DNA of 64,000 bases, taken from the NCBI GenBank assembly GCA_001786955.1, contig MFUM01000004.1:4457-68456 (forward strand), read 5' to 3'. The notes under the pieces were generated by a model. It had not been told where the DNA came from. It ran no database searches and worked only from the letters and a program-made list of their open reading frames with translations. Below are positions 12,122 to 62,889 of this stretch, piece by piece (position 1 is the first letter of the stretch; every line of letters begins with the position of its first letter). A program made the translations under genes and the position numbers. Source of the DNA: Candidatus Nomurabacteria bacterium RIFCSPHIGHO2_12_FULL_42_19. GTDB lineage: Bacteria; Patescibacteriota; Minisyncoccia; Phycocordibacterales; UBA9973.

Positions 12122-12170
12122 TTAATCCCAACGCTCTCGGGTCGGGACTCCGACTTTACATCGGGGTTAA
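12122..12170 (-). repeat. family F hairpin element, intergenic copy (5' UTR side of the DUF378 gene)
   Basis: The minus strand reads TTAACCCCGATGTAAAGTCGGAGTCCCGACCCGAGAGCGTTGGGATTAA. The 17-mer AGTCGGAGTCCCGACCC is identical to gyrB 36541-36557. Confidence 0.6.
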
Positions 12171-14213: not shown

Positions 14214-15950
14214 TTATTTACGATTATTTTTAATATTCTCTTTTTTCTTATTCAATTCATTTATTTCCTTCAAAATCTTTTTACCTATTTCCTCATTAGA
14301 CGTTTGTCTTAATTCCAGCATTTTCTTGCTTAACTCTTCATTAATATTTTCTTCTTCAAGATTCAGAAACATCTCCGTTATGCTATTTTCTAATTTTTCG
14401 TTGTTCGTATAAAATACTTCTGCTTCGAATATAAGATCTTGTTTGACAACTTCATACTTTTTATAAACTTCTCCTAATTTTTCAAAAATTGCCTTAAAGT
14501 CTATAGCGGACGTTGGACGTCCGAGTTCCGGACGTCCAACGTCCGCTAAGCTTTGCTGCCAAAGAGCGATGCCCAAGAGTTTTCGCTCTATGTAATCTTT
14601 TCTGTACATCTTGGTTAAGCTCTCTCCCGCTTCCTTAATTTCTTCTTTTTCATATCTGAACTCTTGCTCAATTTTTTTTAAATCATCCTGTAATGCATTT
14701 TGAGATATGCCCGAAAGGTCGCTAATCTTTTTTATAAAATGCATTTTTTCTATCGAGCTTTCGAGCGCATTTACAAACGGTAATATTGTGCCTTTTATTT
14801 CCCTACCGGCCTTACGGGTGTCATTGCTATAATTTTTTAAAACTTTACTTAAAAGAAATTCTATAACGTGTTTAGAGTTTTTAATGGCTTCGCGCCAGGC
14901 ATCCGAACCCGTCTTCCCAATCAAATCCGCCGGATCGACACCATCAGGCATATCCACCACTTTTACATCCATCCCCAAAGAAAGAGCGATTTTGCCGGCA
15001 CGAATGGTCGCACTTGCCCCCGCCTTATCAGCATCAAAAGCAAGCACTAGATTCTCCGATAGGCGCCGCACCAGTCCTAAATTGCTTACAACATTTTCTT
15101 TTGAAACAGTAGAATCCGATAAAGCTGTGCCGGATGTCGCGATTGTGTTTTTATATCCCGCTTGATGCGATAATATCAAATCCATCTGACCTTCCACTAA
15201 AACAGAGAAGTTGTTCTTGCGGATGGAATCCTTAGCCTTATCAATTCCGTAAAGCACCGCATTTTTGCTGAAAATGGGCGTCTCGGGAGAGTTTAAATAT
15301 TTCGGTTCTCCTTCCCCTGTAATTCTTCCCGAAAACGCTATAACTCTTCCGCTTGAATCATTCATGGGAAACATAATTCTATTGCGAAAACGATCATAGT
15401 ATCCTTTCTCCGTTTTTTTAATTAGCCCGGCACGCTCTATTTCTAAATCACTAAAACCTGTCAACTTCAAGTGTTCATAAAGCGTCCGCCAGTCATCCTT
15501 CGCAAATCCAATACCAAAATCTTTGATTGTTTTTTCGCTCAGTCCTCGAGATTTTAAATATTCTATTTGTTTCGTTTCTAAGTTAGAAATAAAGAACTTC
15601 TCTGCTTTCTCCATCGCCCTGTATAATTTTTCTTTTTCGCTTTCCGCTTCTTTCATTTCTTTGCTGTAAGCCTTAAGAGGCACTCCGGCCCTATCTGCAA
15701 GAAGTTTTAATGCGCCTTTAAAATCAAGCCCTTCAAATTCCTCGACAAAGGTAAAAATATCACCCGACGCCCCGCAGCCAAAACAGTAATAAGTGCCGCG
15801 GTCGGGAGAAATGAAAAACGAAGGGGTTTTTTCATTGTGGAACGGGCATTTCGCCTTCAGGTTTACGCCTGTCTTCTCGAGCTTTATATAGGAAGAGACT
15901 ACTTCTTCAATCGATAGCCTCTCCTTAATTTTTTGTACGGGGGAATTCAT
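14214..15950 (-). CDS. dnaG: DNA primase
   Basis: Zinc finger [11 protein letters not shown]...CFGCG and a TOPRIM domain ([16 protein letters not shown]). Confidence 0.95.
14506..14546. repeat. family D perfect 18-bp inverted repeat, in frame in dnaG
   Basis: GCGGACGTTGGACGTCCG-agttc-CGGACGTCCAACGTCCGC encodes [14 protein letters not shown]. Confidence 0.7.
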
Positions 15951-24771: not shown

Positions 24772-25080
24772 TTATTTTTTCATTTTCAACTCCTTTCTCT
24801 TTAGTGTCGGCTTCTTTTTCGGCAGCACATTAACTTTTTTCCCTTCAATGACCTTGTCGTGCACCAAGAAATTATGCATCGTGTCAGAACATTTCGCGCC
24901 TTGGGAAATCCAATACTTTATCCGGTCAGCTATCAAGTTTTTCTCCCCGGCTTTTGGATTATAGGTGCCGAGTATTTCCAAAAACTTTCCACTCTTGGTG
25001 CTATTTTTTGAATCGGTCAAAACAGCCCGAAATGACGGATCATTTTTCCTGCCTATTCTCTGAAGCCTTATCTTTAACAT
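24772..25080 (-). CDS. rpsP: 30S ribosomal protein S16
   Basis: MLKIRLQRIGRKNDPSFRAVLTDS N-terminus. Confidence 0.9.
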   Translation of the reverse strand: MLKIRLQRIGRKNDPSFRAVLTDSKNSTKSGKFLEILGTYNPKAGEKNLIADRIKYWISQGAKCSDTMHNFLVHDKVIEGKKVNVLPKKKPTLKRKELKMKK

Positions 25081-25109
25081 GCAGTGAGTCTAACATAAAT
25101 TATATAAAA

Positions 25110-25138
25110 TGCAATCCGCCCCTATTTTATGCTATATT
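25110..25138 (+). promoter_or_regulatory. promoter TGCAAT-17-TGcTATATT, 7 nt before the rnr ATG (leaderless-type)
   Basis: -10 at 25133-25138, ATG at 25146. Confidence 0.45.
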
Positions 25139-25145
25139 TAAAAGA

Positions 25146-27167
25146 ATGAAGGAATCTAAAAACAAATTGCAAGGTATTATTTCCATCTCTTCAAAAGGCA
25201 CAGGCTATGTGGCAACCGGAGAAGTGAAGAATAAGGGCCAGGACCCGGAAATTGATTTCCAGCATTTAAATACCGCCCTGCACGGAGATATGGTAGAGAT
25301 AATCTTGCACCCGAAAGGTAAAAATCGCCAAACTGCTGAAGTTTCAAAAATAATATCGCGCGCAAAAATGAATTTCGCGGGAGTTCTGGAAGAAGAAAAC
25401 AAAATGTTCTTCCTGAAACCGGACGATACAAAAATGTATACAGATATTCTAATCCCAACCAAGTTTTTAAATAATGCGAAAGTTGGACAAAAGGTTTTTG
25501 TGGAAATAATTTCATGGAAAGATCCCCACAAGGCTCCGGAAGGAAAAGTAATAAAAGTTTTAGGCCGTCCGGGAGACAATGATACTGAAATGGAAAGTAT
25601 TGCGATAGAAAAAGGCTTTGATGCGAAACTTCCGCATAAAGTGGAAGAAGAAGCAAGGAAAATAAAGCAAAACGGCATTAAAGAAACCGACTATGCCGGA
25701 CGCAGAGATTTTCGCAAAACCCTGACCTTCACTATTGACCCCTCGGATGCGAAAGATTTTGATGATGCGATATCTTTCAGATTCCTCCCCTCCTTAAATA
25801 AGGAGGGGGCAGGGGGTGGTAATTCAAAAGACCACCCCGCCTCCGGCACCCCTCCTAAAAAAGGAGGGGAAGAGCAATATGAAGTCGGCATACACATCGC
25901 CGATGTCTCGCATTATGTAAAAATCGGCAGTGCTTTAGATGAAGAAGCGCGAGAAAGAGGAACTTCGGTATATTTGGTAGATAGGACGATACCAATGCTG
26001 CCGGAAACGCTTTCTAATGATTTGTGCTCTCTGGTGCCAAATAAAGACCGGCTTACTATGAGCGCAGTATTTATCATAGATAAAAATGCTCATGTAAAAA
26101 GCAAATGGTTCGGGCGCACGGTTATACATTCAAAAAAAAGATTTACTTACGAAGAAGCCGAGGAGTTAATAAAAAAATCCGCTGCGCCGTTCCATAAAGA
26201 ACTTTTTATCTTGAACAGCTTGGCAAAAAAATTAACCGGGGAAAGATTTGCGCAGGGCGCAATATCGCTTGACCAGGAAGAAGTAAAATTTGTTTTGGAT
26301 AAAAATGGAGTGCCGTTGAAAGTAATAAAAAAAGAGCGCGGCGATTCAAACAGGCTGATTGAGGAATTTATGCTCCTGGCAAATAAAAAAGTGGCGGAGG
26401 TCTTGTCTCCAAAAAATATAAAGGGTGTGAAAGATGAAGGCGTATCCATATACCGAGTGCACGATCTGCCGAGTAAGGAAAAAATGGCCGATCTGGCGTT
26501 TTTTTTGCGAAGTTTGGGACATAGAGTCTCCTTGCAGAACGGCCTTATCCCGACATATGAAATAAATAAGCTTCTAGAGAGTTTGGCCGGCAAAAATGAA
26601 GAAGATACGGTGCATCGCGCAGTTATCCGTTCTATGGCTAAAGCGCTTTATTCCACCAAAAATATCGGGCATTACGGTCTGGCTTTTCAATATTATACTC
26701 ACTTCACTTCCCCGATTAGGCGCTATCCGGACATCATGGTGCACAGACTTCTGGAAAAATTCCTCTCTGGCAAAAAAATAAAAAAGGAGGATTTAAAAGA
26801 GAAATTAATCGAATATGAAAAAATCGCCCTAAATGCATCCGAACAGGAAAAACGCGCCGCAGATGCCGAACGAGCTTCCATAAAATATAAACAAGTGGAA
26901 TATATGTCCAGATATCTGGGAAAAAGCTTCGACGGGGTAATCAGCGGGATAACCGAGTGGGGCATGTATGTGGAAGAACTAGAGACAAAATGCGAAGGTT
27001 TGGTGCGGGTACGTGATATGAATGACGATTTTTATATTTTCAATGAAAAAAAATTGGAATTAACCGGACAAAAAAAGAAAAAAAAGTACAGGCTCGGCGG
27101 CCGTGTCAAAATAAAAGTAAAATCGGTTGATTTGGAGAGAAAAACGATAGATTATATATTGACATGA
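25146..27167 (+). CDS. rnr: ribonuclease R
   Basis: RNB domain motifs (TIDPSDAKDFDDAIS, HIADVSHYV, YSTKNIGHYGLA..YTHFTSPIRRYPD) and a C-terminal S1 domain. The 24954 extension is rejected. Confidence 0.9.
   Translation: MKESKNKLQGIISISSKGTGYVATGEVKNKGQDPEIDFQHLNTALHGDMVEIILHPKGKNRQTAEVSKIISRAKMNFAGVLEEENKMFFLKPDDTKMYTDILIPTKFLNNAKVGQKVFVEIISWKDPHKAPEGKVIKVLGRPGDNDTEMESIAIEKGFDAKLPHKVEEEARKIKQNGIKETDYAGRRDFRKTLTFTIDPSDAKDFDDAISFRFLPSLNKEGAGGGNSKDHPASGTPPKKGGEEQYEVGIHIADVSHYVKIGSALDEEARERGTSVYLVDRTIPMLPETLSNDLCSLVPNKDRLTMSAVFIIDKNAHVKSKWFGRTVIHSKKRFTYEEAEELIKKSAAPFHKELFILNSLAKKLTGERFAQGAISLDQEEVKFVLDKNGVPLKVIKKERGDSNRLIEEFMLLANKKVAEVLSPKNIKGVKDEGVSIYRVHDLPSKEKMADLAFFLRSLGHRVSLQNGLIPTYEINKLLESLAGKNEEDTVHRAVIRSMAKALYSTKNIGHYGLAFQYYTHFTSPIRRYPDIMVHRLLEKFLSGKKIKKEDLKEKLIEYEKIALNASEQEKRAADAERASIKYKQVEYMSRYLGKSFDGVISGITEWGMYVEELETKCEGLVRVRDMNDDFYIFNEKKLELTGQKKKKKYRLGGRVKIKVKSVDLERKTIDYILT
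25784..25870 (+). repeat. family A element (modules Y then X), in frame in rnr
   Basis: CCTCCCCTCCTTaaatAAGGAGGGGGCAGGGGGTGGTaattcaaaagACCACCCCGCCTCCGGCACCCCTCCTaaaaaAGGAGGGG. A 30-nt stretch is identical to pheS 40782-40826. Confidence 0.8.
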
Positions 27168-29100: not shown

Positions 29101-31374
29101 TTATTTCGCAATTTGAGTAGCTTCTTCGAATTTTACCGAGAGAAGTTTGGAAGCTTCGTTGGAGCCGATGGTGACGCCGTAAAGAATTCCGGCTCTGGAC
29201 ATCGTTTCGCGGTTGTGGGTAACGACGATAAGCTGGGATTGCTTGGAGAGCTTCTCCAGCATATCCCCGTATTTTCGGGAGTTTGCTTCATCCAGCGCCG
29301 CATCCGTTTCGTCCAGCACCAAAAAAGGCGGCGGATTGACTTGCGACATAGCGAAAAGAAGGGCAATGGAAGTAAGCGACCTTTCTCCCCCGGAGAAAGC
29401 GTGAAGTTCCTTGACTTTCTTGCGCGGCAAAGAGACATTGATTTCTATTCCTTTTTCAATAACGATGTTCTCATCATCTTCTGATTCCCCCATTTCATCG
29501 TCATCTTCATTGATTTCATCAACTTTTTTCTTCTTAGTTTCAATAATAGAAATAGATCCGTGTCCGCCGCCAAACATTAATGAAAAGAATTCTTGAAACT
29601 CTACGTTGATTTTTTTGACACCTTCCTTGAATTCCGTATCTATTTTTTCCTTCAAATCAGCAATAAGTATAACCAGAGATTCAATGCTTTTGGATAAATC
29701 TTCCATTTCTTTCGTTAAAAATTGATCCCGCCCGGAAACTTCTTTATATTCCTTTATCAATTCCGCTCCGTTGCCCAGGCCCGTATCTTCTAATTTTATT
29801 TTTATGCGCTCAATTTTTTTCTTTTGGTCTTCTTGGTTATGCAATTCCCCGTTGTTTTCAATTTTATAGTCCTTATAAGAAAAAACTTCCCGTCCAATCA
29901 GGATTTCCCCTTCTTTTATCTCATTTTCAAAAGATTCGGCCCTATTTTTCAAATTCCCTTCTTTGATAGCCACAAGTTCCAGAGCGGAAGACAATTCTTG
30001 TTGTCTGACTCTCCAGGCAAATTTCTCCCGTTCAAGATCGCGTAAGGCCTCCATTTCCTTGTTTATTTCTTGTTTCAGTATCTCTATTGATTTGGCAATT
30101 TCTTTTTCTTTGCTTTCAATCCCTTTCATTTCTTCCAAGATTGCCTGCTGGGTTTTTTTTAGTTTTTCAATTTCTAAATTGTGGCTGGATTCATCCTTGT
30201 CATTTTGAGAGAATTTTTTCAAAATATTCTTAATACTCTCCAAAACGGGCCTAATCTCCTCAATACTTTCTTTTAAAAAAGCCAAATCTATAGAATTATT
30301 TATCTCACTGATTATGGCTTTGATTTCTTCCTGTGAAATTTCTATAAATAGGGATTTCTGTTCTTTCCTGCGTTCTTCCATTTCAACCATTCCCTCTATC
30401 CGCCCAAGCTTGCGTTCTATTTCACTTTTTACTCCGCGAAGGGAGTTGAGGCCTTCCTCAATTTTTCTCAATTCTTCTATTTTACCCCCACCCATCCTCC
30501 CCCTTATTAAGGGGGAGGTGTCAGAATGACGGAGGGGGTCGTTGTTTTCAACAATAGAAATTTTACCAGTTACATTTTTAAGTTCATTTGAAAGCTTGTT
30601 CCTTTCAGATGATAAATCGGCTTTCTCTTTCTCCAAAAAGATGCTTTCTTTCTTCAGATATTCCCCGTAAAGAGCCGTCAGCTCTGTTTGCATTTCTTTT
30701 GTTTTTTCAAATTTTTCCACCTGTTTCTTGAGAAAGTTAAGATGTGGGGCATTTTCCCGCCGCATTAAGGAAACCTCTTTCATGTTTTCATTCGTCCGTT
30801 CAAGTTTTCTCTCGCTTTCTTTTATCTTATATTGATAAATTTTAAGTCCCAAGGCATCTTCTACCATTTCTTTTTTTTCTCTTGCATTGGCGCTCAAAAT
30901 CCTGTCTGTCTCGCCCTGAGAAATAATGTGATGCCCGGAAGAACCTATGTTGACCGAGGCCAGCAAATTGTGAATATCCTTCAGTCTGACTTCTGTGCCA
31001 TTTAAAATATATTTATTCAACCCATCGGAAAAAACCTCGCGGGAAATTGAAATAACATCATAATTCAAATTAATATTCTCTCCCCCGTCATTGGAAAGCT
31101 TGAAAATTTTGTCGGAATTATTGAAATAGATGGTGACGGACGCCCGTGAGGCTTTTGGCAGATTTTTAGAACCTTTAAAAATGAGATCCGAACCGCCTTT
31201 TCCGCGCATGGATTTCATGGATTGTTCGCCCAAAACAAAGCGGATGGATTCCACCACATTGGATTTTCCGGATCCGTTCGGGCCGACAATGGAAACAATG
31301 GGATTTTCAAACTCTAAAACAGTTTTTTGGGCAAAAGACTTAAAACCATTTAGCTGGAGTGTTTTGAGCCGCAT
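29101..31374 (-). CDS. smc: SMC-like chromosome segregation ATPase, short (757 aa), no recognisable hinge
   Basis: Walker A GPNGSGKSN, signature LSGGERSL and Walker B LVLDETDAALD. The middle is coiled-coil. Confidence 0.8.
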   Translation of the reverse strand: MRLKTLQLNGFKSFAQKTVLEFENPIVSIVGPNGSGKSNVVESIRFVLGEQSMKSMRGKGGSDLIFKGSKNLPKASRASVTIYFNNSDKIFKLSNDGGENINLNYDVISISREVFSDGLNKYILNGTEVRLKDIHNLLASVNIGSSGHHIISQGETDRILSANAREKKEMVEDALGLKIYQYKIKESERKLERTNENMKEVSLMRRENAPHLNFLKKQVEKFEKTKEMQTELTALYGEYLKKESIFLEKEKADLSSERNKLSNELKNVTGKISIVENNDPLRHSDTSPLIRGRMGGGKIEELRKIEEGLNSLRGVKSEIERKLGRIEGMVEMEERRKEQKSLFIEISQEEIKAIISEINNSIDLAFLKESIEEIRPVLESIKNILKKFSQNDKDESSHNLEIEKLKKTQQAILEEMKGIESKEKEIAKSIEILKQEINKEMEALRDLEREKFAWRVRQQELSSALELVAIKEGNLKNRAESFENEIKEGEILIGREVFSYKDYKIENNGELHNQEDQKKKIERIKIKLEDTGLGNGAELIKEYKEVSGRDQFLTKEMEDLSKSIESLVILIADLKEKIDTEFKEGVKKINVEFQEFFSLMFGGGHGSISIIETKKKKVDEINEDDDEMGESEDDENIVIEKGIEINVSLPRKKVKELHAFSGGERSLTSIALLFAMSQVNPPPFLVLDETDAALDEANSRKYGDMLEKLSKQSQLIVVTHNRETMSRAGILYGVTIGSNEASKLLSVKFEEATQIAK
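30484..30540 (-). repeat. family A module X copy, in frame in smc
   Basis: The coding strand GACCCCCTCCGTCATTCTGACACCTCCCCCTTAATAAGGGGGAGGATGGGTGGGGG encodes DPLRHSDTSPLIRGRMGGG. Confidence 0.65.
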
Positions 31375-31381: not shown

Positions 31382-32110
31382 TTAATCCAGCCAATTTTTT
31401 ATTTTTAATGCGGCTTCAGCCGCTTTCTGTTCGGCTTCTTGTTTTGATTTGCCCTTGCCCTCGGCAATCAAGTCCGGTCCGAAATAAATACCCACGGTAA
31501 AATGCTTGTCGTGGTCCGGGCCCGACTGATGCAAAACCTTATAGGCGGGAGTAACCAACACGAATTCCTGCGCTTTTTCCTGCACCAGGGACTTTGCATC
31601 GCGCCAAAGTTTTTTATTTACTATTTCTTCTGTCTTGGGCAGAAGAGTTTCAGCCACGAATTTATCTGCCGCATCATATCCTCTATCCAGATACATAGCT
31701 CCGACAAATGCCTCATAAGTATTCGCCAAAATATATTGCCTGGCTTTGCCGTAATCTTTGGCTTCGCCTTTGGACAAAAGTAAATAGTCGTTCATTCCTA
31801 TTTTTAAAGCAATTTCAGAAATAATAACGGCATTCACAAGAGCGGAACGAAGCGCGGTCAATTCTCCTTCCGTATAGTGCGGATATTTTTTATAAAGAAA
31901 ATCGGTGACAATGAGCTCGAGCACGGCATCGCCTAAAAATTCCAAACGTTCATTGTGGGAAAGAGAAGCCGCCGGATTTTCGTTTATATAAGAACGGTGC
32001 GTAAAAGCCTGTTTAAGCAAATCCTTATTCTTAAAAATTACTTTTATTTTTTTCTCAAAATTTGAAAAATGTGTCATGTTATCTGTTTGTTTTTTGTGAA
32101 ATAATTTCAA
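31382..32110 (-). CDS. rnc: ribonuclease III
   Basis: [13 protein letters not shown] signature and a C-terminal dsRBD (GPDHDKHF...[13 protein letters not shown]). Confidence 0.9.
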
Positions 32111-33041
32111 CCGCCTTGCTAATTAACGGGATAATGTCGTTATAAATACGGAGTTCCGGGATTGCGGAAAGCTCAAACCATCTTGCCCCATCCAGTCCGC
32201 CGGATTTTTCCAAGGCAAGTTCTCTGTATTCGCTCTTGGCTAAAAAATAAACCACCTTTTTCAGGCTTTTTCCTTTTTCTGGATGCGTTGCCACATATTC
32301 GTTTTCCCCCAATTTTTCTTCCATTTTAATATCAAGCCCGATTTCTTCCTTTATTTCTCTGATTGTCGCTTCTTCTTCGTTTTCTCCCTTTTCAATACTG
32401 CCCTTGGAAATAGTCCAATAGCCGAAAACATCATGCACTAATGCAAAAAAGACTTTGTTATTCTTTTTCGCATAAACAAGCGCTCCGCCTTTTTTCTCAA
32501 CTGGCAATTTTGCAGTATCCGGCACTTCTTCGTGTTTTTTCTTTCTGCTGACTTGTTCTTTTCCGGGCTCGCCTATTTCTTTATAAACCGCGCCTAAGAC
32601 GCCGTTGACGAATTTACCGGAATTCTCTCCGCCGAAAGTTTTTGCCAGTTCTATCGCTTCATTGATAGCCACTTTCGGAGGCACTTCCTTCCTGTCGCCA
32701 AAAAGGAGCTCCGTTAGGCCGATTCTCAGAATATTCCTGTCAACAACAGAAATCTTATCTATCGGCCAATCAGGCGCGGCCTTTTCTATGATTTCGTCAA
32801 TCATTGCGCGCTTCTTTAACACTTTATCCATAAGCGAGAACACAAAAACATCATCCTCCAACCCTGGGGCAAATTCTTTTAAATTTCTTTTGAGAATATT
32901 ATTTATCTCTCCGGAAATATCGGAATTGCTGATTTTCTTATCATCGGACCCGCCTGCGCTCGACTGTGGCGAGGCGAGCAGGAAATCCCACTCAAAAAGC
33001 GTCTGAAGAACTATTGATCTGGAAAGGTGCCTATTTGCCAT
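32079..33041 (-). CDS. nusB: NusB - NUDIX hydrolase fusion protein
   Basis: The N-terminal NusB fold ([13 protein letters not shown]...[27 protein letters not shown]) is followed by a Nudix box [23 protein letters not shown]. Confidence 0.8.
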
Positions 33042-33075
33042 AAAATAATGAACGGGGTGAACAATTTGTCAATTC

Positions 33076-33133
33076 ACCTCACCCCCGACCCCTCTCCTTA
33101 TCAAGGAGAGGGGTGCCAAAGGCGGGGTGAGGT
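33076..33133 (-). repeat. family A module Y-like nested hairpin, intergenic (between rpmF and nusB)
   Basis: Outer stem ACCTCACCCC/GGGGTGAGGT. Inner stem CCCCTCTCC-ttatcaa-GGAGAGGGG. Confidence 0.65.
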
Positions 33134-33432: not shown

Positions 33433-35208
33433 ATGGAAAAGACTGAAAAACTAGGCAATTTAAGGCATACTCTGGCTCACCTGCTCGCATCGGCCATCGG
33501 AGAGATTTATAAATTTGATAAAATCAAACTTACCCTCGGTCCGGCCATAGATAATGGCTTTTATTATGATATTGATTTTTGCGGCGAAAAAATGACCGAT
33601 GCGGATTTGAAAAAAATTGAAGATAAAATGCGGAAAAATTTGCCTAAATGGACAGAATGGGAACATAAAGAAATAAGCAAGGACGAAGCGTTAGAATTTT
33701 TCAAAAACGAATACAAGGCGGAATTAATAAATGAAATCGCCCTACGCGGAGAGAAAATTACTACTTATACTTGCGGAGGATTTACTGATTTATGCCGTGG
33801 TGGACACTTGGCGCATCCGTCTAAAGAAATAGATCCGGATTCTTTCAAGCTGGACCGCGTGGCCGGCGCTTACTGGCGAGGAGATGAGAAGAACAAAATG
33901 CTCACCCGAATTTACGGATTGGCTTTTGAGACCAAAGAAGAACTGGATGCATATTTAACACAAAGAGAGGAAGCAGAAAAAAGAGACCATCGAAAGCTCG
34001 GACAAGAGCTTGATATTTTTATTTTTGATGACGATGTCGGCCCGGGACTTCCGCTTTGGTTGCCAAATGGCGCCGTGATTATTGAAGAACTGGAAAAATT
34101 AGCAAAAGAAACGGAAGAAAAAGCCGGATATGTTCGTGTGCGCACTCCCCATATTGCCAAAGAATCAATGTATAAAAAAAGCGGGCATTTGCCTTATTAT
34201 GCAGACAGCATGTATTCGCCGATGGACTGTGAAGGAGAAAATTACTATCTCAAAGCGATGAATTGCCCGCACCATCATAAAATTTTTGCCGCGCGGCCAA
34301 AAAGCTATCGTGATTTGCCCCTGCGGCTTGCCGAATATGGCACAGTCTATCGTTATGAAAAATCCGGAGAACTTTTCGGGCTTATGCGCGTACGCTCCCT
34401 CTCAATGAATGACGCGCATATTTATTGTTCGGAAAAACAATTCGCGAATGAATTTCGCGCAGTTAATGAAATGTATCTTAAATATTTTAAAATTTTCGGA
34501 GTTGAAAAGTATATAATGCGATTCTCTACCCATGATCCGAAAGAACTTGGAAAAAAATATGTGGACGAACCGGAGCTCTGGCTGAAAACGGAAAAAATGG
34601 TCCGTGATGTTCTGATTGAATCAAAAATTCCATATGTTGAGGTGCCGAATGAAGCGGCTTTTTATGGGCCAAAAATAGATGTGCAAGTCTGGAGTGCTAT
34701 TGGGAAAGAGTTTACTCTGGCCACCAACCAGGTTGATTTTGCAGTGCCTAAGCGTTTTGATTTAACATTCACAAATAAAGAAGGCAAGGCAGAAACTCCG
34801 CTTTGTATCCATCGTGCGCCGCTCGGCACCCATGAAAGATTTATCGGCTTCTTGATTGAGCATTATGCCGGCATCTTCCCTCTTTGGCTCTCGCCAGTGC
34901 AGGTAAAAGTAATTCCTGTCCGCACAAATCATAATGAATATGCGAAGCAGATTTTTGAATTATTAAAAGAAAATAACATCCGTGCGGAATTGGATGATAG
35001 CGATGAAAACCTCGGCACAAAAGTCCGCGATGCAAAAAATAAAAAAATGCCTTACTGGATAGTCATCGGCGACAAAGAAATAGAAGCAAAAAAAGTAACT
35101 CTTGAATCCCGCCTGCCTGCGCAGGCAGGCGACGCTGGACAATTAGGACAAATTTCAAAAGAAGAACTCGTCGCAAAACTTGTGGCCGAGGTCAAAATTA
35201 AAATATAA
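33433..35208 (+). CDS. thrS: threonyl-tRNA synthetase lacking the N-terminal TGS domain
   Basis: Starts at the editing-domain HTLAHLL motif. Class II core and a C-terminal anticodon-binding domain. TATAAA lies 6 nt before the ATG at 33433. Confidence 0.93.
   Translation: MEKTEKLGNLRHTLAHLLASAIGEIYKFDKIKLTLGPAIDNGFYYDIDFCGEKMTDADLKKIEDKMRKNLPKWTEWEHKEISKDEALEFFKNEYKAELINEIALRGEKITTYTCGGFTDLCRGGHLAHPSKEIDPDSFKLDRVAGAYWRGDEKNKMLTRIYGLAFETKEELDAYLTQREEAEKRDHRKLGQELDIFIFDDDVGPGLPLWLPNGAVIIEELEKLAKETEEKAGYVRVRTPHIAKESMYKKSGHLPYYADSMYSPMDCEGENYYLKAMNCPHHHKIFAARPKSYRDLPLRLAEYGTVYRYEKSGELFGLMRVRSLSMNDAHIYCSEKQFANEFRAVNEMYLKYFKIFGVEKYIMRFSTHDPKELGKKYVDEPELWLKTEKMVRDVLIESKIPYVEVPNEAAFYGPKIDVQVWSAIGKEFTLATNQVDFAVPKRFDLTFTNKEGKAETPLCIHRAPLGTHERFIGFLIEHYAGIFPLWLSPVQVKVIPVRTNHNEYAKQIFELLKENNIRAELDDSDENLGTKVRDAKNKKMPYWIVIGDKEIEAKKVTLESRLPAQAGDAGQLGQISKEELVAKLVAEVKIKI
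35110..35131. repeat. family B perfect 22-bp palindrome, in frame in thrS
   Basis: CGCCTGCCTGCGCAGGCAGGCG encodes RLPAQAGD. Confidence 0.7.
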
Positions 35209-36291: not shown

Positions 36292-38397
<2,106 letters not shown>

Positions 38398-38412: not shown

Positions 38413-40269
38413 TTACCGCACTTGCCAACCATTATTCTCCTTGATTTTATTGGTTATTTGAGTCATAACTGCATTTATTTCCGCATCTGTAAGAGTCCTA
38501 TCAAAAGACTGGAAAACTACCCTAAAAGCATAAGAGATTTTATCGTCCTTTTTAAACTCATCAAAGAGTTCCGGGCCACGAATTGCAAGACTTCCGGCAT
38601 TATTTTTTATAATTTTTTCTACATCTTTACTTTTAACTCCCTCCGGCACCCAGACGGCAATATCGCGTGCGATAAAAGGAAACAAGGACCACATCTTAAA
38701 AGCTCCGCCTGTGTGCTTTTGCGAACGGTGACGTTGCGAAGCAGGATATTCCTGAGCAAAAGCATCAGGCGAGGCTGATTTACAAAATTCTTCAAGACTC
38801 ATTTCTTTTACTTCTTTTTTATTTCCATAAGCCACATTCATTTCTTCCCCGCTCTTTTTAAACACCGTTCCAATTTCAAAAATTTTTATTTCGTCCATCC
38901 CCAACAAAGGCACGTTGAGTTGGTTTAATTTCAAACTTTCCTTCAGTCCGTCAGTCAGATTCGTCCGCAAAAATTTTTTATCCGAAGCGCTCTGCATCAC
39001 TTCCACTTCCCCACTATTACAAAAAGTATAAGTCATTACTTCACTATATCCTTCGCCGAGCAATTTATTTCTCGCCCAGGAAATCTTCGCATAAGTTTCA
39101 TTTACTTTTGTTTTAAAATTAATTTTTGGTATTTTTCCTTTTACTTTGTCATAGCCAATAATCCTTCCGATTTCTTCTGCCATATCTTCCTCAATTACTA
39201 AATCAAGCCGCATCGGTGGCACGGTGATTACGTATTCTTCTCCCCCTGCTAAGGGGGAGTGCCCATCGGGCGAGGGGGTCTTTGTATATTCAAAGTTATA
39301 TCTTTTCAAAATATCTTCCACTTGAGACACAGAAATGTCCAAACCAAGAATTTTTGAAATTTTTTCCACCGAGAAAGAAAGCTTTCTGATCTCCTGTTTT
39401 TGGGGATAGACATCGACAATGTTTTCAAAAATAGCTTCCGGACACATTTCTAAAATAAGCGCCGATAATTCCAGCATAGCGTGCGGGCCAAGTTCCGGAG
39501 ATAAATCGTTTTCAAAGCGCTTGCGTGCGTCCGTAAATATATTCAAAGCCTGCGCGGTTTTTCTTACGGAAGTTGGATTAAAATTAGCAACTTCCAGAAT
39601 TATATCTTTTGTATTATTATCTACTTCCGCAATTTTCCCGCCCTTGATGCCAGCAATGGCTAAGACATTCTTATCGTCCGAAATGACCATATTTGAAGAT
39701 TTGAACTTTATTTCTTTATTGTCCAGGGTGGTCATCTCCTCGCCGTCTTTACCGTTTCGGACAATTATGTCGCCCTGTATTTTATCCAAATCAAAAGCAT
39801 GTGCGGGCTGACCGCAATCAAACATCACAATATTCGCCGCATCTACCACATTATTTATGCTTCTCTGCCCTATTGACTCCAGATGCTTTATGACCCATTC
39901 CGGACTGGTGCCAATTTTAATATTCTTTACAATTCTCCCCATATATCTTCTACATTTATCTGATTGGACATCAATTTTTAATTCTGCCTGCCCCGCCGGA
40001 GCCTTGGGCGCAGGCGGGGGAATTTTATACTTCGGAGCAGGATCAACATACTTTATATTTAAAAGTGAAGCGAGTTCACGCGCCACGCCCTGGTGGCTAA
40101 GTAAATCATGCGCGCGGTTTGGCAAGATTTTCAAATCAAAAATATTATCATCCCCTTTTTTCTCTAAACTCTCAACTTCACAAAGATGGTAATTAAAAAC
40201 ATCCACAAATTTTTCTGCATCAGGTGCTTCCGGTATATACCATTTGAGCCAATTGTAAGAAATCAACAT
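38413..40269 (-). CDS. pheT: phenylalanyl-tRNA synthetase beta subunit (short form)
   Basis: B3/4, B5 and FDX-ACB-like C-terminal regions. Directly downstream of pheS. Confidence 0.9.
   Translation of the reverse strand: MLISYNWLKWYIPEAPDAEKFVDVFNYHLCEVESLEKKGDDNIFDLKILPNRAHDLLSHQGVARELASLLNIKYVDPAPKYKIPPPAPKAPAGQAELKIDVQSDKCRRYMGRIVKNIKIGTSPEWVIKHLESIGQRSINNVVDAANIVMFDCGQPAHAFDLDKIQGDIIVRNGKDGEEMTTLDNKEIKFKSSNMVISDDKNVLAIAGIKGGKIAEVDNNTKDIILEVANFNPTSVRKTAQALNIFTDARKRFENDLSPELGPHAMLELSALILEMCPEAIFENIVDVYPQKQEIRKLSFSVEKISKILGLDISVSQVEDILKRYNFEYTKTPSPDGHSPLAGGEEYVITVPPMRLDLVIEEDMAEEIGRIIGYDKVKGKIPKINFKTKVNETYAKISWARNKLLGEGYSEVMTYTFCNSGEVEVMQSASDKKFLRTNLTDGLKESLKLNQLNVPLLGMDEIKIFEIGTVFKKSGEEMNVAYGNKKEVKEMSLEEFCKSASPDAFAQEYPASQRHRSQKHTGGAFKMWSLFPFIARDIAVWVPEGVKSKDVEKIIKNNAGSLAIRGPELFDEFKKDDKISYAFRVVFQSFDRTLTDAEINAVMTQITNKIKENNGWQVR
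38708..38769. repeat. family E hairpin element, in frame in pheT
   Basis: TGCTTTTGC / GCAAAAGCA arms around the core TGCGAACGGTGACGTTGCGAAGCAGGATATTCCTGAGC. Compare trmD 23908-23974. Confidence 0.65.
39237..39280 (-). repeat. family A module X copy, in frame in pheT
   Basis: The coding strand GACCCCCTCGCCCGATGGGCACTCCCCCTTAGCAGGGGGAGAAG encodes TPSPDGHSPLAGGEE. Confidence 0.65.
39984..40020. repeat. family B-like GC-rich insert, in frame in pheT
   Basis: CTGCCTGCCCCGCCggagccttgggcgcaGGCGGGGG encodes PPPAPKAPAGQAE. Confidence 0.55.
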
Positions 40270-40280: not shown

Positions 40281-41072
40281 TTAAAACTGATTGAGGCGTA
40301 AATCTCCCTGATAAAAAAGTCTAACATCCGGAATACCCCATTTAATCATAGCAATACGGTCCAATCCTCCGCCGAAAGCAAAACCTTGGTATTTTTTAGG
40401 GTCCAAGCCGCAATTTTTGAGTACATTTGGGTGTAAAACACCTGAACCCATCATCTCAAGCCACTTCCCTTTGAACTTGGCGAAAACTTCCAGAGATGGT
40501 TCGGTAAAAGGGAAAAAACTGGGGCGAAATTCTACCTCCACATCATCACTCAACATTTTTTTGTAAAAATGGGTTAATACGCCCTTCAAATCAGCAAGGG
40601 AAACATTTTCTCCCACCATTGCTCCGTCTATCTGATAAAATTGCATTTCGTGCGTTGCATCCGTAGCTTCGTTGCGGAAAACTTTTCCGATGGAAATAAA
40701 AGCGGCTGGCAATCTGCCGTCTTTGCCCGCTTGCTCAATCGCGCGGGCGGTTACGGTCGTCGTATGTGTTCGCAACACAGATTTTGAATTACCACCCCCT
40801 GCCCCCTCCTTATCAAGGCGGGGAGGATTCTTTTCTCCTCCTGCCTGAGGAGGAGTGCCCGAAGGACGAGGTGGTTCTTTTATCCAAAATGTATCCTGCA
40901 TATCCAGCGCCGGATGGTCTTTCGAAAAATTCAAGGCGTAAAAGTTATACCAGTCGCTCTCCAGCTCCGGCCCGGTCGCGATTTCAAAACCAAGCTCCGA
41001 AAAAGCCCGATAAGCCTCCTCGGCTAACAGAGAAAGCGGATGTATTGTGCCCTTTTTTATGTCTTCGTTCAT
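40281..41072 (-). CDS. pheS: phenylalanyl-tRNA synthetase alpha subunit (catalytic core only)
   Basis: Class II motifs (LRTHTT, FRNEATDATH, GFAFGGGLDRIAM). The N-terminal coiled coil is absent. Confidence 0.9.
   Translation of the reverse strand: MNEDIKKGTIHPLSLLAEEAYRAFSELGFEIATGPELESDWYNFYALNFSKDHPALDMQDTFWIKEPPRPSGTPPQAGGEKNPPRLDKEGAGGGNSKSVLRTHTTTVTARAIEQAGKDGRLPAAFISIGKVFRNEATDATHEMQFYQIDGAMVGENVSLADLKGVLTHFYKKMLSDDVEVEFRPSFFPFTEPSLEVFAKFKGKWLEMMGSGVLHPNVLKNCGLDPKKYQGFAFGGGLDRIAMIKWGIPDVRLFYQGDLRLNQF
40782..40875 (-). repeat. family A element (modules X then Y), in frame in pheS
   Basis: The coding strand ACCACCTCGTCCTTCGGGCACTCCTCCTCAGGCAGGAGGAGAAAAGAATCCTCCCCGCCTTGATAAGGAGGGGGCAGGGGGTGGTAATTCAAAA encodes PPRPSGTPPQAGGEKNPPRLDKEGAGGGNSK. 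Confidence 0.8.
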
Positions 41073-44818: not shown

Positions 44819-47014
44819 TTATAACATACTTAAAAATTCTTTCTCGCTTAATATTTTTACACCCAGCTTTTCGGCAACTTTAAGCTTGGAGCCCGGGTCC
44901 GCTCCGGCTACGATATAGGAAGTATTTTTTGAGACGGAACCCGCGACTTTCCCTCCGAGAGCCAGGATTCTTTCTTTAGCAATTTCTCGGGACATTTGGG
45001 AAAGCGTCCCGGTCAAAACGAAATGTAATTCGGTAAATTTGTCGGCTTTCTTTTTTTCCGCTCTTTCCACGATTACGCCATTTCTTTGCAATTTTTTTAT
45101 GAAATTCAAATTATTTTTATTATTAAAAAAATCATAAACGCTTTTTGATACAGCCGGGCCGATGTTTTCTATACTATCTATCTCAGCAAGGACTCCCCTT
45201 GCTGAAGTTATTAATTTTTCCAGAGTGCCAAAGTGTAGCGCTAAATCTCTTGCTGTTTCCTCCCCCACATGCAGGATTCCGAGCGCCCACAGAAAGCGTG
45301 AAAAAGGGATTTTCTTTTTATTTTTTATTTCATTGATTATGTTTTCCGCCGATTTTTCCCCAAAGCGTTCCAGGAGCGCTATATCTTCTTTTTTAAGGGT
45401 GAAAATGTCGGCTGCGTCGGTAATGAGCCCTTCGTCCTTGAATCTTCTCAGTATTTTCGGGCCTAATTCATAAATTTCAAAGACAGAAACAAAATGCTCT
45501 AAATACCTTTCGTTTTTTGCCGGGCATTTAGGATTGCTGCAATAATGAGCGACAGAGATATTCTCCAGCTCGCAAGATTTCTGAGTCGCGTAAGTCCCAC
45601 CCGGTACCCCGGGAAGGGTCAAGCGCGAAGAAATCTCGTGAGCCGAAGAATCCCCCATCTTTTTCTTCCTAACTTTTCCTCCGCAGGCCGGGCATTTGTC
45701 CGGCATTTTGAATTTTTTTTCTTTGCCTGTCCGCATCCGAATCAGCACCTCCACTACTTTCGGTATCACATCGCCGGCTTTTTCTATCACGACCGTATCC
45801 CCGATACGCAAATCAAGGCGCTCTATCTGGTCCATATTATGGAGAGTAGCCTTGGACACCCGGGAACCCGCCACCAGCGTCGGCTCAAAAAGAGCGAGCG
45901 GTGTCAATACACCGGTACGCCCGACATTTACCTTTATATCCTTTACTATTGTTGTCGCTCTTTCCGCCGGATATTTGAATGCCACCATAAAGCGCGGCGC
46001 CTTGCCGACCACCCCTAGTGTCTCCTGTAATTTCAAATCGTCCACCGAGACAACGACGCCGTCCGTGCCGTAGAGAAAATCGGGCCTGATTTTTTCAAAT
46101 TTCTTTATGAAAGTAAACACTTCATTCATATTAGCGCACAGAGCCTCCAATTTCTCAACTTTAAATCCAATCCTGCGGAGCATTTGATGTTTTTCGGAGT
46201 GGGTTTGCATAGCCGAATCATGAATTTTCTGAGTCGCGTAAGTCCCACCCCGTACTCGGGGAAGGGTCAAGCGCGAAGAAAATTCATGATTCGGCGTAGC
46301 CTCGGCTATATCGTAAGCAAAAAAATCCAATTCCCTTTTGGCGGCTAATTTTGGATCCAGCTGCCGCAAACTTCCTGCCGCGGCATTTCGGGTATTGGCA
46401 AAAAGGGGTTTTCCTTTTTTCTCATTTTCTTTATTCAATTTAACGAGCATTTCTTTGCTCAAAAGCGCTTCTCCGCGGATTTCCAGGTGCGGAAGGTATG
46501 GTTTTTGGAGAAGAAGTGGAATTGAATGTATGGTTTTGAGATTTTGGGTTATGTCTTCCCCAATTAATCCGTCTCCTCTCGTTGCGCCGCGCATAAACTT
46601 GCCATTTTCATAAACAAGCGAAACTGCCAACCCGTCAAACTTGACTTCGCAAAAATAATTAAATTTCGCGCGCGCAGGTAAAAGCTTTTTGATTCTTGTT
46701 TCCCACTCATATAATTCTGTCTCACTAAAAGCATCATTAAGAGAAAGCATGCGGGTTTTGTGCTGAACTTTTACAAATTTATTAAGCGGTTTGCCGGCTA
46801 CTCTGTTTTCCGGAGCATTTAAATCGTTAAATTCGGGGTATTTTTTCAAAAGCTCTTTAAGCTCGTGAGTGAGAGAATCGTAAACATCGTCGGTTACACC
46901 GGGGGCGTTTTGGGTATGATATAAATCACGCAAACGCGCGATTTCTTTTCGTAATTTTTTTACCCGCTTGGATTCGGCGAGGCTGGTTCTTTTTTTATCT
47001 TCCACCTCTTTCAT
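44819..47014 (-). CDS. ligA: NAD-dependent DNA ligase
   Basis: Adenylation motif CEVKFDGLA, OB fold, Zn finger CPACG...CSNPKCPAK, HhH and BRCT domains. About 60 aa longer than usual because of two inserts. Confidence 0.95.
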   Translation of the reverse strand: MKEVEDKKRTSLAESKRVKKLRKEIARLRDLYHTQNAPGVTDDVYDSLTHELKELLKKYPEFNDLNAPENRVAGKPLNKFVKVQHKTRMLSLNDAFSETELYEWETRIKKLLPARAKFNYFCEVKFDGLAVSLVYENGKFMRGATRGDGLIGEDITQNLKTIHSIPLLLQKPYLPHLEIRGEALLSKEMLVKLNKENEKKGKPLFANTRNAAAGSLRQLDPKLAAKRELDFFAYDIAEATPNHEFSSRLTLPRVRGGTYATQKIHDSAMQTHSEKHQMLRRIGFKVEKLEALCANMNEVFTFIKKFEKIRPDFLYGTDGVVVSVDDLKLQETLGVVGKAPRFMVAFKYPAERATTIVKDIKVNVGRTGVLTPLALFEPTLVAGSRVSKATLHNMDQIERLDLRIGDTVVIEKAGDVIPKVVEVLIRMRTGKEKKFKMPDKCPACGGKVRKKKMGDSSAHEISSRLTLPGVPGGTYATQKSCELENISVAHYCSNPKCPAKNERYLEHFVSVFEIYELGPKILRRFKDEGLITDAADIFTLKKEDIALLERFGEKSAENIINEIKNKKKIPFSRFLWALGILHVGEETARDLALHFGTLEKLITSARGVLAEIDSIENIGPAVSKSVYDFFNNKNNLNFIKKLQRNGVIVERAEKKKADKFTELHFVLTGTLSQMSREIAKERILALGGKVAGSVSKNTSYIVAGADPGSKLKVAEKLGVKILSEKEFLSML
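45568..45642 (-). repeat. family C hairpin element copy 1, in frame in the ligA Zn finger (75 nt)
   Basis: Outer arms GCTCGCAAGATTTC/GAAATCTCGTGAGC. Core TTCTGAGTCGCGTAAGTCCCACCCGGTACCCCGGGAAGGGTCAAGCGCGAAGAAA. Confidence 0.8.
46212..46295 (-). repeat. family C hairpin element copy 2, in frame in the ligA adenylation region (84 nt)
   Basis: Perfect 17-bp arms GCCGAATCATGAATTTT/AAAATTCATGATTCGGC. The core differs from copy 1 at 3 positions. Confidence 0.8.
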
Positions 47015-49238: not shown

Positions 49239-50063
49239 CTAAAAAAGACGCAATTCAAAAAGAAACGCCAAGAGCGCGCCTAAAACCAGATATGGAGCAA
49301 AGGGAATTTCGCTTTTTATTCCGTATTTTTTAGAAAAAACAACAAGAGAAAGACCGACAATGGCCCCAAGCCAGAAAGCGACCACAAGGCCGGAGAATGC
49401 GCGCGCGAGCCCAAGCAGCCATCCCAAGCCGACTGCCAGTTTGGCATCCCCCAGCCCCATCCAAGTTCCGGAAGACACGAGCCAAAATAAATAAAAAGGT
49501 AAAGCAATCAAGAAGCCGGACAAAAATTCCAAAATTGAAGGCATGTGCGGATAAAAACCTGCCTGCGCCCAGCCTGCGCTGGCAGAAGACAGGCCAGAAT
49601 TGTTAAAAAAGAATAAGCCGATAAAACCAAGAGCGCCTAAGGCAAAAGCGAGCGAGTCGGGGATTATTTTATGCCGGAGGTCGTAGACGGCAATAACCAC
49701 CAGAAGCGCGAATATCGCGGCATAATAAGCATAAGCGATAATAAATGCGGGAGTAAAAAAACTAAACTGTCCGCCCAGGGCGGAAAACTTTAAAAAGAGC
49801 GCCGCAAAAATCAGGCCGGTCGCCAGCTCGACCAAAGGATAGGAAATTGAGATTCTTGTTTTGCAGGTTCGGCATCTACCTCCCAAAACAAAAAAACTTG
49901 CGAGCGGGACAAGCTCATACCAGCAAAGAGTATTCTGACAGGACATACAGGCGCTTCTCCCGCCGAAGGATCTCTCGGTGTTCAGCCGGGCAATGACAAC
50001 ATTTAAAAAACTTCCGATAATCAGGCCAAAAAAAAAGAAAATAATTGTAACTACAATGATCAT
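49239..50063 (-). CDS. pilD: prepilin peptidase (A24 family)
   Basis: N-terminal Cys motif CMSC...CRTC and a catalytic Asp context (GLGDAKL). Confidence 0.9.
   Translation of the reverse strand: MIIVVTIIFFFFGLIIGSFLNVVIARLNTERSFGGRSACMSCQNTLCWYELVPLASFFVLGGRCRTCKTRISISYPLVELATGLIFAALFLKFSALGGQFSFFTPAFIIAYAYYAAIFALLVVIAVYDLRHKIIPDSLAFALGALGFIGLFFFNNSGLSSASAGWAQAGFYPHMPSILEFLSGFLIALPFYLFWLVSSGTWMGLGDAKLAVGLGWLLGLARAFSGLVVAFWLGAIVGLSLVVFSKKYGIKSEIPFAPYLVLGALLAFLFELRLF
49558..49585. repeat. family B GC-rich insert, in frame in pilD
   Basis: CCTGCCTGCGCCCAGCCTGCGCTGGCAG. pilD peptide SASAGWAQAG. Confidence 0.55.
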
Positions 50064-62391: not shown

Positions 62392-62476
62392 TGATAAAGT
62401 ATAACAGCGAAGGTCGCCTTCGCAAATCTCCTGGCGGATTTCATCACGCCGAAGGTTTGCTACTGCGAACCGAAGG

Positions 62477-62563
62477 CGGATGAGGTGGGATTCGAACCCA
62501 CGGTCCTTTTAAGGGGACGGCGGTTTAGTAAACCGCTACCTTAAACCACTCGGTCACTCATCC
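62477..62563 (-). tRNA. type II (long variable arm) Ser-like tRNA with anticodon ACU
   Basis: Manual fold: acceptor GGATGAG/CTCATCC, D stem ACC/GGT, anticodon stem GCGGT/ACCGC, loop TTACTAA, T arm GTGGG-TTCGAAT-CCCAC, discriminator G. Confidence 0.7.
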
Positions 62564-62800: not shown

Positions 62801-62889
62801 GGAGCCGTGTCTGAGCGGTCTAAGGTACATCTTTGCTAAAGATGCAGGGGCTTTATACCCCCTCGCGAGTTCGAATCTCGCCGGCTCCG
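62801..62889 (+). tRNA. tRNA-Ser (anticodon GCU), long variable arm
   Basis: Manual cloverleaf: acceptor GGAGCCG/CGGCTCC, anticodon stem CATCT/AGATG, loop TTGCTAA, T-loop TTCGAAT, discriminator G. Confidence 0.9.

Follow-up and report, generated by a model that had tools for sequence, protein, structure and literature searches.

An in-frame, GC-rich palindromic element in an SMC-like gene of a Nomurabacteria bacterium and the association of its family with DUF559 nuclease genes

The SMC-like gene and its palindromic element

We analysed a stretch of 64,000 nucleotides (nt) from Candidatus Nomurabacteria bacterium RIFCSPHIGHO2_12_FULL_42_19 (contig MFUM01000004.1), which is referred to as the window, and in particular a gene for an SMC-like ATPase that contains a 57-nt palindromic element translated in frame. 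The positions of all features are collected in Table 1. According to Pfam, residues 3-741 of the 757-amino-acid (aa) host protein match SMC_N (PF02463, E=6.5e-57), and through this match the protein has the Walker A/B head of ABC type, split between the N and C termini, by which the SMC family is recognised. Pfam gives no match to the hinge domain (PF06470) in the protein and the centre of its AlphaFold2 model is helical, so the label 'SMC-like' is apt. The antiparallel coiled-coil arm is formed in the model by helices 178-277, 296-340, 398-502 and 536-601. The protein is 100% identical to the 'Chromosome partition protein Smc' of Candidatus Nomurabacteria bacterium GW2011_GWA2_41_25 and is recorded on 25 contigs; orthologues of this Smc-annotated protein fall into length classes of ~711 and ~746 aa.

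The element is a sharp GC island in a window of ~41% GC. The original prediction had described positions 30484-30540 as a coding copy of a dispersed repeat, and both parts of this description hold: the minus strand is GACCCCCTCCGTCATTCTGACACCTCCCCCTTAATAAGGGGGAGGATGGGTGGGGGT and is translated as DPLRHSDTSPLIRGRMGGG within the SMC-like open reading frame (ORF), and related copies are present in rnr, pheS, pheT and intergenic DNA. The 23-nt palindrome core of the SMC element found no match in 100 shuffles, which makes chance an unlikely source.

We describe the element by four modules: L, a C-rich arm (e.g. ACCCCC or ACCACC); hp1, a small hairpin; H, a hairpin whose 5' arm consists of pyrimidines only and whose 3' arm consists of purines only, CCTCCCCC-loop-GGGGGAGG; and R, a G-rich arm complementary to L, usually with a short bulge (e.g. 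ATGGGT) before it. In the SMC copy the modules form a 'closed' unit, L-hp1-H-R, and the listed copies end in (T/G)ACCCC...GGGGT(A/C). For the single-stranded SMC element, the prediction is a three-way junction of the outer stem, hp1 and the 10-bp pyrimidine/purine hairpin. The predicted folds reach -35.9 kcal/mol (z -3.8) for the sense RNA, -33.4 kcal/mol (z -3.3) for the antisense RNA and ~-20 kcal/mol for either strand as DNA (z about -4.8; -4.85); since sense and antisense fold about equally well, folding cannot distinguish the strands. In aligned family members the sequence of hp1 differs and the hairpin is kept (GTCA/TGAC, GCC/GGC, GTCC/GGAC, GTCGC/GCGAC, CTGCC/GGCAG, GCCCT/AGGGC, GGCC/GGCC). 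This compensation is qualitative and concerns aligned examples only, with MAFFT columns that shift between copies; a generic test for a small hairpin beside H gave 145 observed against 128 expected, no gain over shuffled flanks, and a separate test based on a regular expression caught too few elements. Gathering and permissive Rfam scans of the window, the element and 15 loci with DUF559 genes (see below) matched no family, only tRNAs being above threshold.

The three other coding copies that had been predicted exist, each of them GC-rich and in frame, and Pfam confirms their hosts as RNase R (rnr), PheT and PheS. It was also correctly predicted that the frame shifts: along the element, the reading frame differs between the window copies, which are 41-96 nt long. 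Those in rnr and pheS have 32 identical nucleotides in common. The insert peptides of rnr and pheT are also tabulated as LPSLNKEGAGGGNSKDHPASGTPPKKGGEE and KTPSPDGHSPLAGGEE, respectively. Alignment with syntenic relatives demonstrates that the rnr, pheS and pheT inserts are missing from close orthologues, and each replaces a short variable loop. A fifth copy, absent from the original prediction, is intergenic and closed, with a predicted RNA fold of -39.9 kcal/mol (z = -5.8).

Two observations concern the hosts and neighbours of these copies. The mechanically called rnr ORF has a TTG start ~60 codons before the start of all orthologues (24954-25140 region), and its true start is probably near MKESKNKLQG. 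NusB and NUDIX are fused in one ORF, a fusion which is kept in all syntenic relatives (L001-L007); L077 has a NUDIX domain as well, located within a LeuRS.

The SMC segment in orthologues and in the coiled-coil arm

Orthologues were compared using the best 120 SMC orthologues and a neighbour-joining tree from which the insert region had been masked. Nearly all of the 120, including the closest, have TEDNN-SxxGN-KKIEEL at the site, with a short SxxGN linker which is common to all outlying orthologues down to 68% identity. Only the query clade (P0001-5), P0013, P0051, P0052 and P0067 carry the insert; these occupy five separate positions on the tree, each adjoining insert-free relatives. Concerning the nucleotide sequences, the insert-bearing gene of L003 is 84% identical to the insert-free gene of L006 and 73-75% identical to other insert-bearing genes, and the nearest gene to that of the window is the insert-free one of L005 (77%). 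Among the five insert lineages the insert is 87-98% identical in nucleotides, compared to 72-78% for the genes, and hp1, which in its SMC-specific form is CCGTCATTCTGACACCTCCCCC, does not differ among the five. Over 30 codons to either side, the flanks of the insert are 61-78% identical among the lineages, which does not exceed the level of the whole gene. A long recombination tract carrying the insert was rejected on this basis: the flanks are as divergent as the gene, which excludes transfer of a long block, and only a few codons directly beside the insert are shared. The insert-bearing genes have S-I-(I/V)-E before the insert, compared to S-x-T-E in the empty ones (a Thr-to-Ile/Val change), and three of them have SSL instead of KKI after it.

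The near-identical alleles P0001-P0005 (99-100%) differ at seven amino acids, and all seven differences lie inside the 19-residue insert (positions 279, 285, 286, 291 and 294), which is therefore either a hot spot of mutation or gene conversion or a region of error-prone assembly. Such fast short-range variation, combined with near-sameness in distant lineages, argues against long vertical conservation. As far as the sequences indicate, the pattern favours recent acquisition, lateral spread or homogenisation. Different inserts can be found at the same places: L007 and its relatives have another small GC hairpin, CCCACGCCAAGGCGGGG (NPRQGGA), at the same SMC site, and the rnr site of L003 has a related but different insert, so the SMC and rnr loops are recurrent landing sites. 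The comparison of filled and empty sites demonstrates that the inserts replace short variable loops, and in the predicted folds their arms are inverted repeats. Among 1.84 billion representatives, the 30-aa insert peptide matched only one SMC fragment (P0123) and unrelated repeats, and the doubled insert peptide had no match in a word-index protein search.

Judged from these comparisons, the SMC segment is a copy, acquired secondarily and in frame, of a structured and dispersed palindrome. An ancestral segment would have spoken against the original prediction; the segment is instead missing in most of the best 120 orthologues. It could be argued that it was ancestral to the SMC clade, was repeatedly lost by hairpin-mediated deletion and was kept elsewhere by structural constraint or gene conversion. 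Palindromes are prone to precise or near-precise excision, and the linker of the empty site of L005, AACACCAAGGGTAAT, loosely resembles the element pieces GACACC..AAGGG..GGTAA. We regard this history as very improbable, because all outlying orthologues share the SxxGN linker, many independent losses would be needed compared to three to five gains, hp1 is identical in the five lineages yet varies freely across the family, and the insert varies fast within one population.

The effect on the protein was assessed with AlphaFold2 models from 71-sequence alignments; their mean pLDDT (predicted local distance difference test) is merely 67-68, so only the helical segments are trusted. In the model of the window protein, helix 178-277 is followed by a break at 278-295 (pLDDT <50 at 279-295) and by helix 296-340. 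The model of the insert-free P0007 has helix 178-274, a break at 275-281 and helix 282-327. The original prediction had placed a Pro/Gly-rich break in an otherwise heptad-like coiled coil. The Pro/Gly-rich, low-confidence loop between long helices is indeed seen, but the coil is not otherwise uninterrupted, as P0007 is already broken. When the AlphaFold2 models with and without the insert are compared, the break has ~18 and ~7 residues, respectively; the insert lengthens an existing joint and makes no new break, because P0007 has its 7-residue break at the same place. In terms of these models, a pre-existing discontinuity of the coiled coil is enlarged from ~7 to ~18 disordered residues.

The returning arm of the window protein has its own break at 503-513, and in the AlphaFold2 model the two arm breaks are located ~100 residues from the N-terminal head and ~98 residues from the C-terminal head. 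This position, that of a natural joint, would suit an adaptive feature of the protein, i.e. a lengthened flexible joint (elbow) in the SMC arm which was selected and spread between lineages, the repeat origin being incidental. The same variant also occupies one identical site in five lineages, each time together with the flanking Thr-to-Ile/Val change. Selection for such a joint is nevertheless unlikely: the repeat family interrupts ~20 unrelated proteins as well as intergenic DNA, most orthologues manage without the insert, the model is disordered at the insert, and the concentration of all seven substitutions of the near-identical alleles in it suggests relaxed constraint on the peptide.

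Distribution of the family, DUF559 genes and orientation

The core pattern CCTCCCCC-N6-7-GGGGGAGGWTGGGTRGGGGT (28 specified bases) was scanned against 185,579 representative genomes and is found at no fewer than 119 loci (at least 119) in several phyla, with variable loops and flanks. We estimate that chance matches to the 28-base pattern, even in DNA of 65% GC, are far below one. The SMC copy fits the pattern, with its pyrimidine-arm/purine-arm hairpin and the G-rich GGWTGGGTRGGGGT tail (or a close variant). Among the matches listed, the core is present in cultured Devosia, Arsenicitalea, Marinomonas, Zooshikella and Azospirillum, in metagenome-assembled genomes assigned to Dongia, and in Chloroflexota/Anaerolineae, Cellvibrionaceae, Rhodocyclaceae, Spirochaetota and others. 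In L034 (Cellvibrionaceae) the element is a perfect palindrome with 20-nt arms. Across lineages, the element is also seen in the same loop of the same protein, namely RNase H (at two sites, with Nomurabacteria and Saccharibacteria among the lineages), an RluA-type pseudouridine synthase and RNase R.

DUF559/YcjD belongs to the PD-(D/E)XK nuclease superfamily and is related to Vsr (PMC1189080). In two Nomurabacteria loci (L011 and L117), two direct copies of the element exactly bracket a 117-aa ORF which belongs to DUF559 (PF04480, E=2.6e-33). Eleven DUF559 genes were found in the 119 pattern loci listed; they come from Patescibacteria, Marinomonas, Devosia and Arsenicitalea, and nearly all of them have hairpins ~5-100 nt from the start codon, the stop codon or both. 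Because the pattern loci had been picked for the repeat, a reciprocal test was made with 80 metagenome loci (L127-L206) selected by DUF559 protein similarity alone, whose GC ranges from 31% to 68%. A perfect pyrimidine-arm hairpin is found within 150 nt of a gene end in 63 of the 80 loci: upstream in 52/78, downstream in 48/75 and on both sides in 38. At distances above 300 nt from the gene, these loci have a background of 0.205 per kb, by which ~7% of the loci would have a hairpin by chance. Across phyla, a tight association thus exists between the family and DUF559 nuclease genes.

On the gene strand the order is usually H-(hp1)-R, the DUF559 gene, and L-(hp1)-H. Flanking copies sharing at least 12 nt are direct in 16/67 and inverted in 16/67 cases, compared to 3/67 in mismatched-locus controls; a single terminal-inverted-repeat architecture around DUF559 was rejected, direct and inverted copies being equally common. 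In L011 the asymmetric arm of the element provides AGAAAGGAGG directly before the DUF559 start codon. Many DUF559 homologues have the read-through tails LIKEGAGGGN or LVKEGAGGGN, and this tail module is found as LNKEGAGGGN and LDKEGAGGGN in the rnr and pheS inserts of the window. In five loci the DUF559 gene has a metG-like gene on one side and tatD on the other, and many DUF559 genes are located on contigs of 0.5-3 kb. The core pattern is also found in seven IMG/VR viral contigs (L207-L213), all of 62-70% GC and none beside DUF559; a phage vector therefore has no support. The openly searchable literature, to which subscription-only papers do not belong, contains no paper tying DUF559 to repeats or holding the core sequence.

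The same loci bear on whether the element is an ordinary REP/REPIN (repetitive extragenic palindromic) sequence, or a MITE (a miniature transposable element with inverted repeats) derived from an insertion sequence (IS), moved by a RAYT (REP-associated tyrosine transposase) or DDE transposase encoded elsewhere, the link to DUF559 being a target preference or coincidence. The element is a short GC-rich palindrome which is dispersed and at times clustered; REPs have been reported inside genes (PMC3733652), and IS elements are known to target REPs (PMC1525189). Such an origin is improbable, as neither GTAG nor CGTC tags the ends, filled sites compared with empty ones revealed no target-site duplication, and the bracketed gene is DUF559 in 63/80 independently chosen loci, which were not scanned for RAYT or IS genes.

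Concerning orientation, all four coding copies had been predicted to lie in the same direction relative to the host coding strand. This is the case for the coding copies of the window, where four of four are sense, and the copy upstream of nusB is also sense, so that all five window copies are on the transcribed strand. Under random insertion with an open-frame filter, four sense copies out of four (n = 4 coding copies) have p ~0.08-0.13. A stop-codon filter was rejected as the source of the bias, since both orientations offer one open frame or more in every window copy. Of the five copies, only that in rnr is on the plus strand, and the cumulative GC skew drops steadily across the window, from which we infer that the direction of replication does not switch within it; the orientation thus tracks the genes and not the replication strand. 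In other Patescibacteria, among the matches listed, the element is in frame in ~20 Pfam-verified housekeeping genes, with five sense sites (SMC, PurL, Fmt, UvrC and DnaG) and ~14 antisense ones. The antisense hosts are TGT, RF-1/2, a class-V aminotransferase, two RluA-type synthases at one site, LeuRS, RNase H (two sites, four or five genomes), RecA, another aminoacyl-tRNA synthetase, and Wzy-like and MiaB-like proteins. As in-frame copies occur in both orientations, a sense-only rule is not a property of the family, and the prediction fails as a general rule. There is roughly no orientation bias across the family in other Patescibacteria, an outcome which the original prediction had itself named as counting against it. 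Copies carrying hp1 are all sense in a small sample.

The sense copies of the window could be explained if the element acted in mRNA, its three-way junction and internal GGAGG (Shine-Dalgarno-like) slowing ribosomes or stabilising the transcript. All five copies, including that upstream of nusB, are on the transcribed strand, their orientation follows the genes even for the rnr copy on the opposite strand despite the steady fall of the GC skew, the predicted RNA folds are strong (z = -3.8 to -6.0), and the L011 element gives AAAGGAGG 5-11 nt before the DUF559 start codon. We nevertheless consider a role in mRNA quite unlikely: both strands fold equally well, the family has in-frame copies in both orientations, there are only four or five window copies with open frames both ways, and no Rfam family matches.

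Further repeats and oddities are seen in and near the window. A second family of GC-rich palindromes (CCTGCC..GCGCAGGC..GGCAGG type) is in frame in EF-Ts, ThrRS, PheT and a prepilin-peptidase-like protein. More GC-rich palindromes, of the GTCGGGAC and GGACGTCC types, are in frame in GyrB and DnaG, with a related copy upstream of ORF 12278. The gene of the NAD-dependent DNA ligase contains two 64-nt direct repeats, 91% identical, in frame and 648 nt apart, each of which encodes approximately SSRLTLPxVxGGTYATQK around a small GC hairpin. ARAGORN reports a tRNA-Ser with the unusual anticodon ACT, which is also a tRNA by Rfam, and an adjoining tRNA-Ser(GCT), which is absent from Rfam at the gathering threshold. 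The gyrB gene of the syntenic relative L003 (JAQULK010000001) contains an intein (PF14890), and the gyrB of the window is without one.

Table 1. Positions of the SMC-like gene, the palindromic element and its modules, related copies and other features; positions refer to the window unless a locus is named
Feature	Position	Strand	Content or basis
SMC-like ATPase gene, 757 aa	29101..31374	minus	SMC_N match, identity search, AlphaFold2 model
57-nt in-frame palindromic element in the SMC-like gene	30484..30540	minus	encodes DPLRHSDTSPLIRGRMGGG, aa 279-297
Outer-stem 5' arm L, ACCCCC	30534..30539	minus	pairs with GGGGGT at 30484-30489; predicted RNA and DNA folds
hp1, small hairpin GTCA-TTC-TGAC	30520..30530	minus	predicted RNA and DNA folds
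Main hairpin H, CCTCCCCC-TTAATAA-GGGGGAGG, 10 bp	30496..30518	minus	core conserved across phyla; predicted fold
3' tail and outer-stem 3' arm R, ATGGGT GGGGGT	30484..30495	minus	constant GGWTGGGTRGGGGT tail in at least 119 loci; predicted fold
Composite rnr copy, permuted H-R-AATTCAAAAG-L-hp1-H	25785..25869 (about)	plus	encodes LPSLNKEGAGGGNSKDHPASGTPPKKGG
Composite pheS copy, L-hp1-H-AAAAGAAT-H-R	40782..40877	minus	encodes EPPRPSGTPPQAGGEKNPPRLDKEGAGGGNSK
pheT copy, truncated L-hp1-H without the 3' arm R	39240..39280 (about)	minus	encodes TPSPDGHSPLAGG
Fifth, intergenic closed copy, L-hp1-H-R	33075..33133	minus	33 nt upstream of the nusB-NUDIX ORF, same strand
rnr (RNase R)	24954..27167	plus	Pfam
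pheT (PheT)	38413..40269	minus	Pfam
pheS (PheS)	40281..41072	minus	Pfam
NusB-NUDIX ORF	32079-33041	minus	
DUF559 genes bracketed by hairpin repeats	L011:6022-6464; L117:7434-7867		
Shared-loop occurrences	L071:4202-4236 and L124:6288-6322; L012, L068, L009; L052 and L098; window rnr and L003:16042-16062		
Second palindrome family	8594-8650, 35095-35151, 39976-40032, 49545-49601		encodes Ala/Gly/Pro-rich peptides such as LPPARAGGAQAG, PPPAPKAPAGQA
Palindromes of the GyrB/DnaG/ORF 12278 type	36517-36585, 14499-14552, 12125-12169		
DNA ligase direct repeats	45578-45641, 46226-46289		
tRNA-Ser, anticodon ACT	62475-62563	minus	ARAGORN; Rfam
tRNA-Ser(GCT)	62801-62890	plus	ARAGORN
gyrB with intein	L003:852-4229		PF14890

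Known systems and interpretation

By analogy, the element behaves most like the Rickettsia palindromic element (RPE), from which it differs in size, composition and host. According to PMC10969869, which draws on Ogata et al. 2000, RPEs are palindromic repeats found in frame in many unrelated Rickettsia genes. As far as that source describes them, the likeness lies in an in-frame palindrome in unrelated essential genes of a small-genome bacterium, with an extra peptide tolerated by the fold, and with intergenic copies as well. In-frame translation is seen here in the four coding copies of the window, which have no counterpart in orthologues, and in the ~20 Pfam-verified hosts. RPEs are, in the same source, ~100-150 bp long and found only in Rickettsia, whereas the window element is 41-96 nt long, GC-rich and from Nomurabacteria. 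It also consists of pyrimidine/purine-arm hairpins, its core occurs across phyla and it is linked to DUF559, these being differences of structure and context in a comparison that did not extend to RPE sequences.

Other systems share single traits with the element. As in REP/REPIN-RAYT systems, dispersed hairpins flank a small nuclease gene at a conserved place (DUF559 between the metG-like gene and tatD in five loci), which resembles the stable single-locus behaviour of RAYTs, and REPs are occasionally located inside genes; such locations have been reported, and the GTAG/CGTC tag is part of the REP definition (PMC3733652). The bracketed gene here is a Vsr-like PD-(D/E)XK nuclease and not a HUH Y1 transposase (RAYT genes were not searched for in the loci), the GTAG/CGTC tag is absent, flanking copies are direct or inverted about equally, and the frequent in-frame stay in essential genes is atypical of REPs. 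MITEs (Correia, ERIC, Nezha) are likewise small non-autonomous palindromes which are able to form in-frame fusions, but the present element shows no target-site duplication against its nearest empty sites and is barely more than two arms and a loop. The only gene that recurs beside it is DUF559, in loci that were not searched for a parent IS or DDE transposase. A precedent for a Vsr-like enzyme in DNA mobility is the I-Bth0305I family, which PMC3239194 describes as Vsr-like homing endonucleases, i.e. nucleases of selfish elements that spread by DNA cutting. These belong, in that text, to group I introns or inteins with a single home site, whereas the present DUF559 genes stand on their own among repeats and encode predicted nucleases. 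Finally, L011 and L117, with one short ORF between two direct copies, resemble integron cassettes, in which a single short ORF lies between imperfect palindromes (attC) that fold as single strands; they differ in that no integrase or attI context is seen and solo repeats are scattered within genes.

We consider it probable, at roughly 0.62, that the SMC segment represents a selfish palindrome of the RPE kind, which the host tolerates and which DUF559 nucleases possibly mobilise. A non-autonomous GC-rich multi-hairpin repeat would have entered the SMC-like gene secondarily and in frame, where a loop was already tolerated; it would be translated as a disordered Pro/Gly-rich stretch and persist as tolerated, selfish or neutral DNA. 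DUF559 nucleases may nick or cut the folded or cruciform repeats and drive their copying or gene conversion, as RAYTs do for REP/REPIN. Only insertions in permissive surface loops of essential proteins would survive, which would explain the recurrence of the same sites, and the SMC-specific variant may have reached the five lineages by a lateral route.

Several points weigh against this interpretation. Filled and empty sites, whose nearest pairs are ~75-85% identical, reveal neither a target-site duplication nor a clean boundary. The hp1 variant GTCATTCTGAC is seen in SMC genes only and the flanking Thr-to-Ile/Val change is common to all five insert lineages, so that a single origin followed by lateral transfer, or selection, fits better than repeated transposition. 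The 64-kb window contains no DUF559 gene according to tblastn and a profile search, the association could be read in reverse, with DUF559 genes inserting preferentially into repeats, and a function for the loop or the RNA structure is possible. To our knowledge, no PD-(D/E)XK nuclease transposes DNA to new sites alone.

A wider proposal goes beyond the selfish palindrome in the SMC-like gene: that DUF559/YcjD Vsr-like endonucleases and CCTCCCC-loop-GGGGAGG hairpins together form an unrecognised, cross-phylum class of nuclease-driven mobile or self-homogenising DNA, a PD-(D/E)XK counterpart of REPIN-RAYT, whose solo repeats colonise essential genes in frame in Patescibacteria and recur, through homing-like copying, at permissive loops (SMC, RNase R, RNase H, RluA). 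We put this forward tentatively, as a possibility that is more doubtful than probable.

The association with DUF559 is more novel than the SMC insert itself. The insert indicates that tiny-genome, candidate-phylum bacteria tolerate selfish palindromes in essential genes, which is mainly known from Rickettsia. In Patescibacteria, such inserts swell and distort alignments and structure models of proteins as well as phylogenies, and such repeats break metagenome assemblies, many DUF559 genes being located on short contigs. Loops that are occupied repeatedly, in different lineages, also mark the places at which conserved proteins tolerate insertions. If true, the DUF559 lead would give a large uncharacterised family a concrete role and would explain its Pro/Gly-rich tails of the LIKEGAGGGN type.

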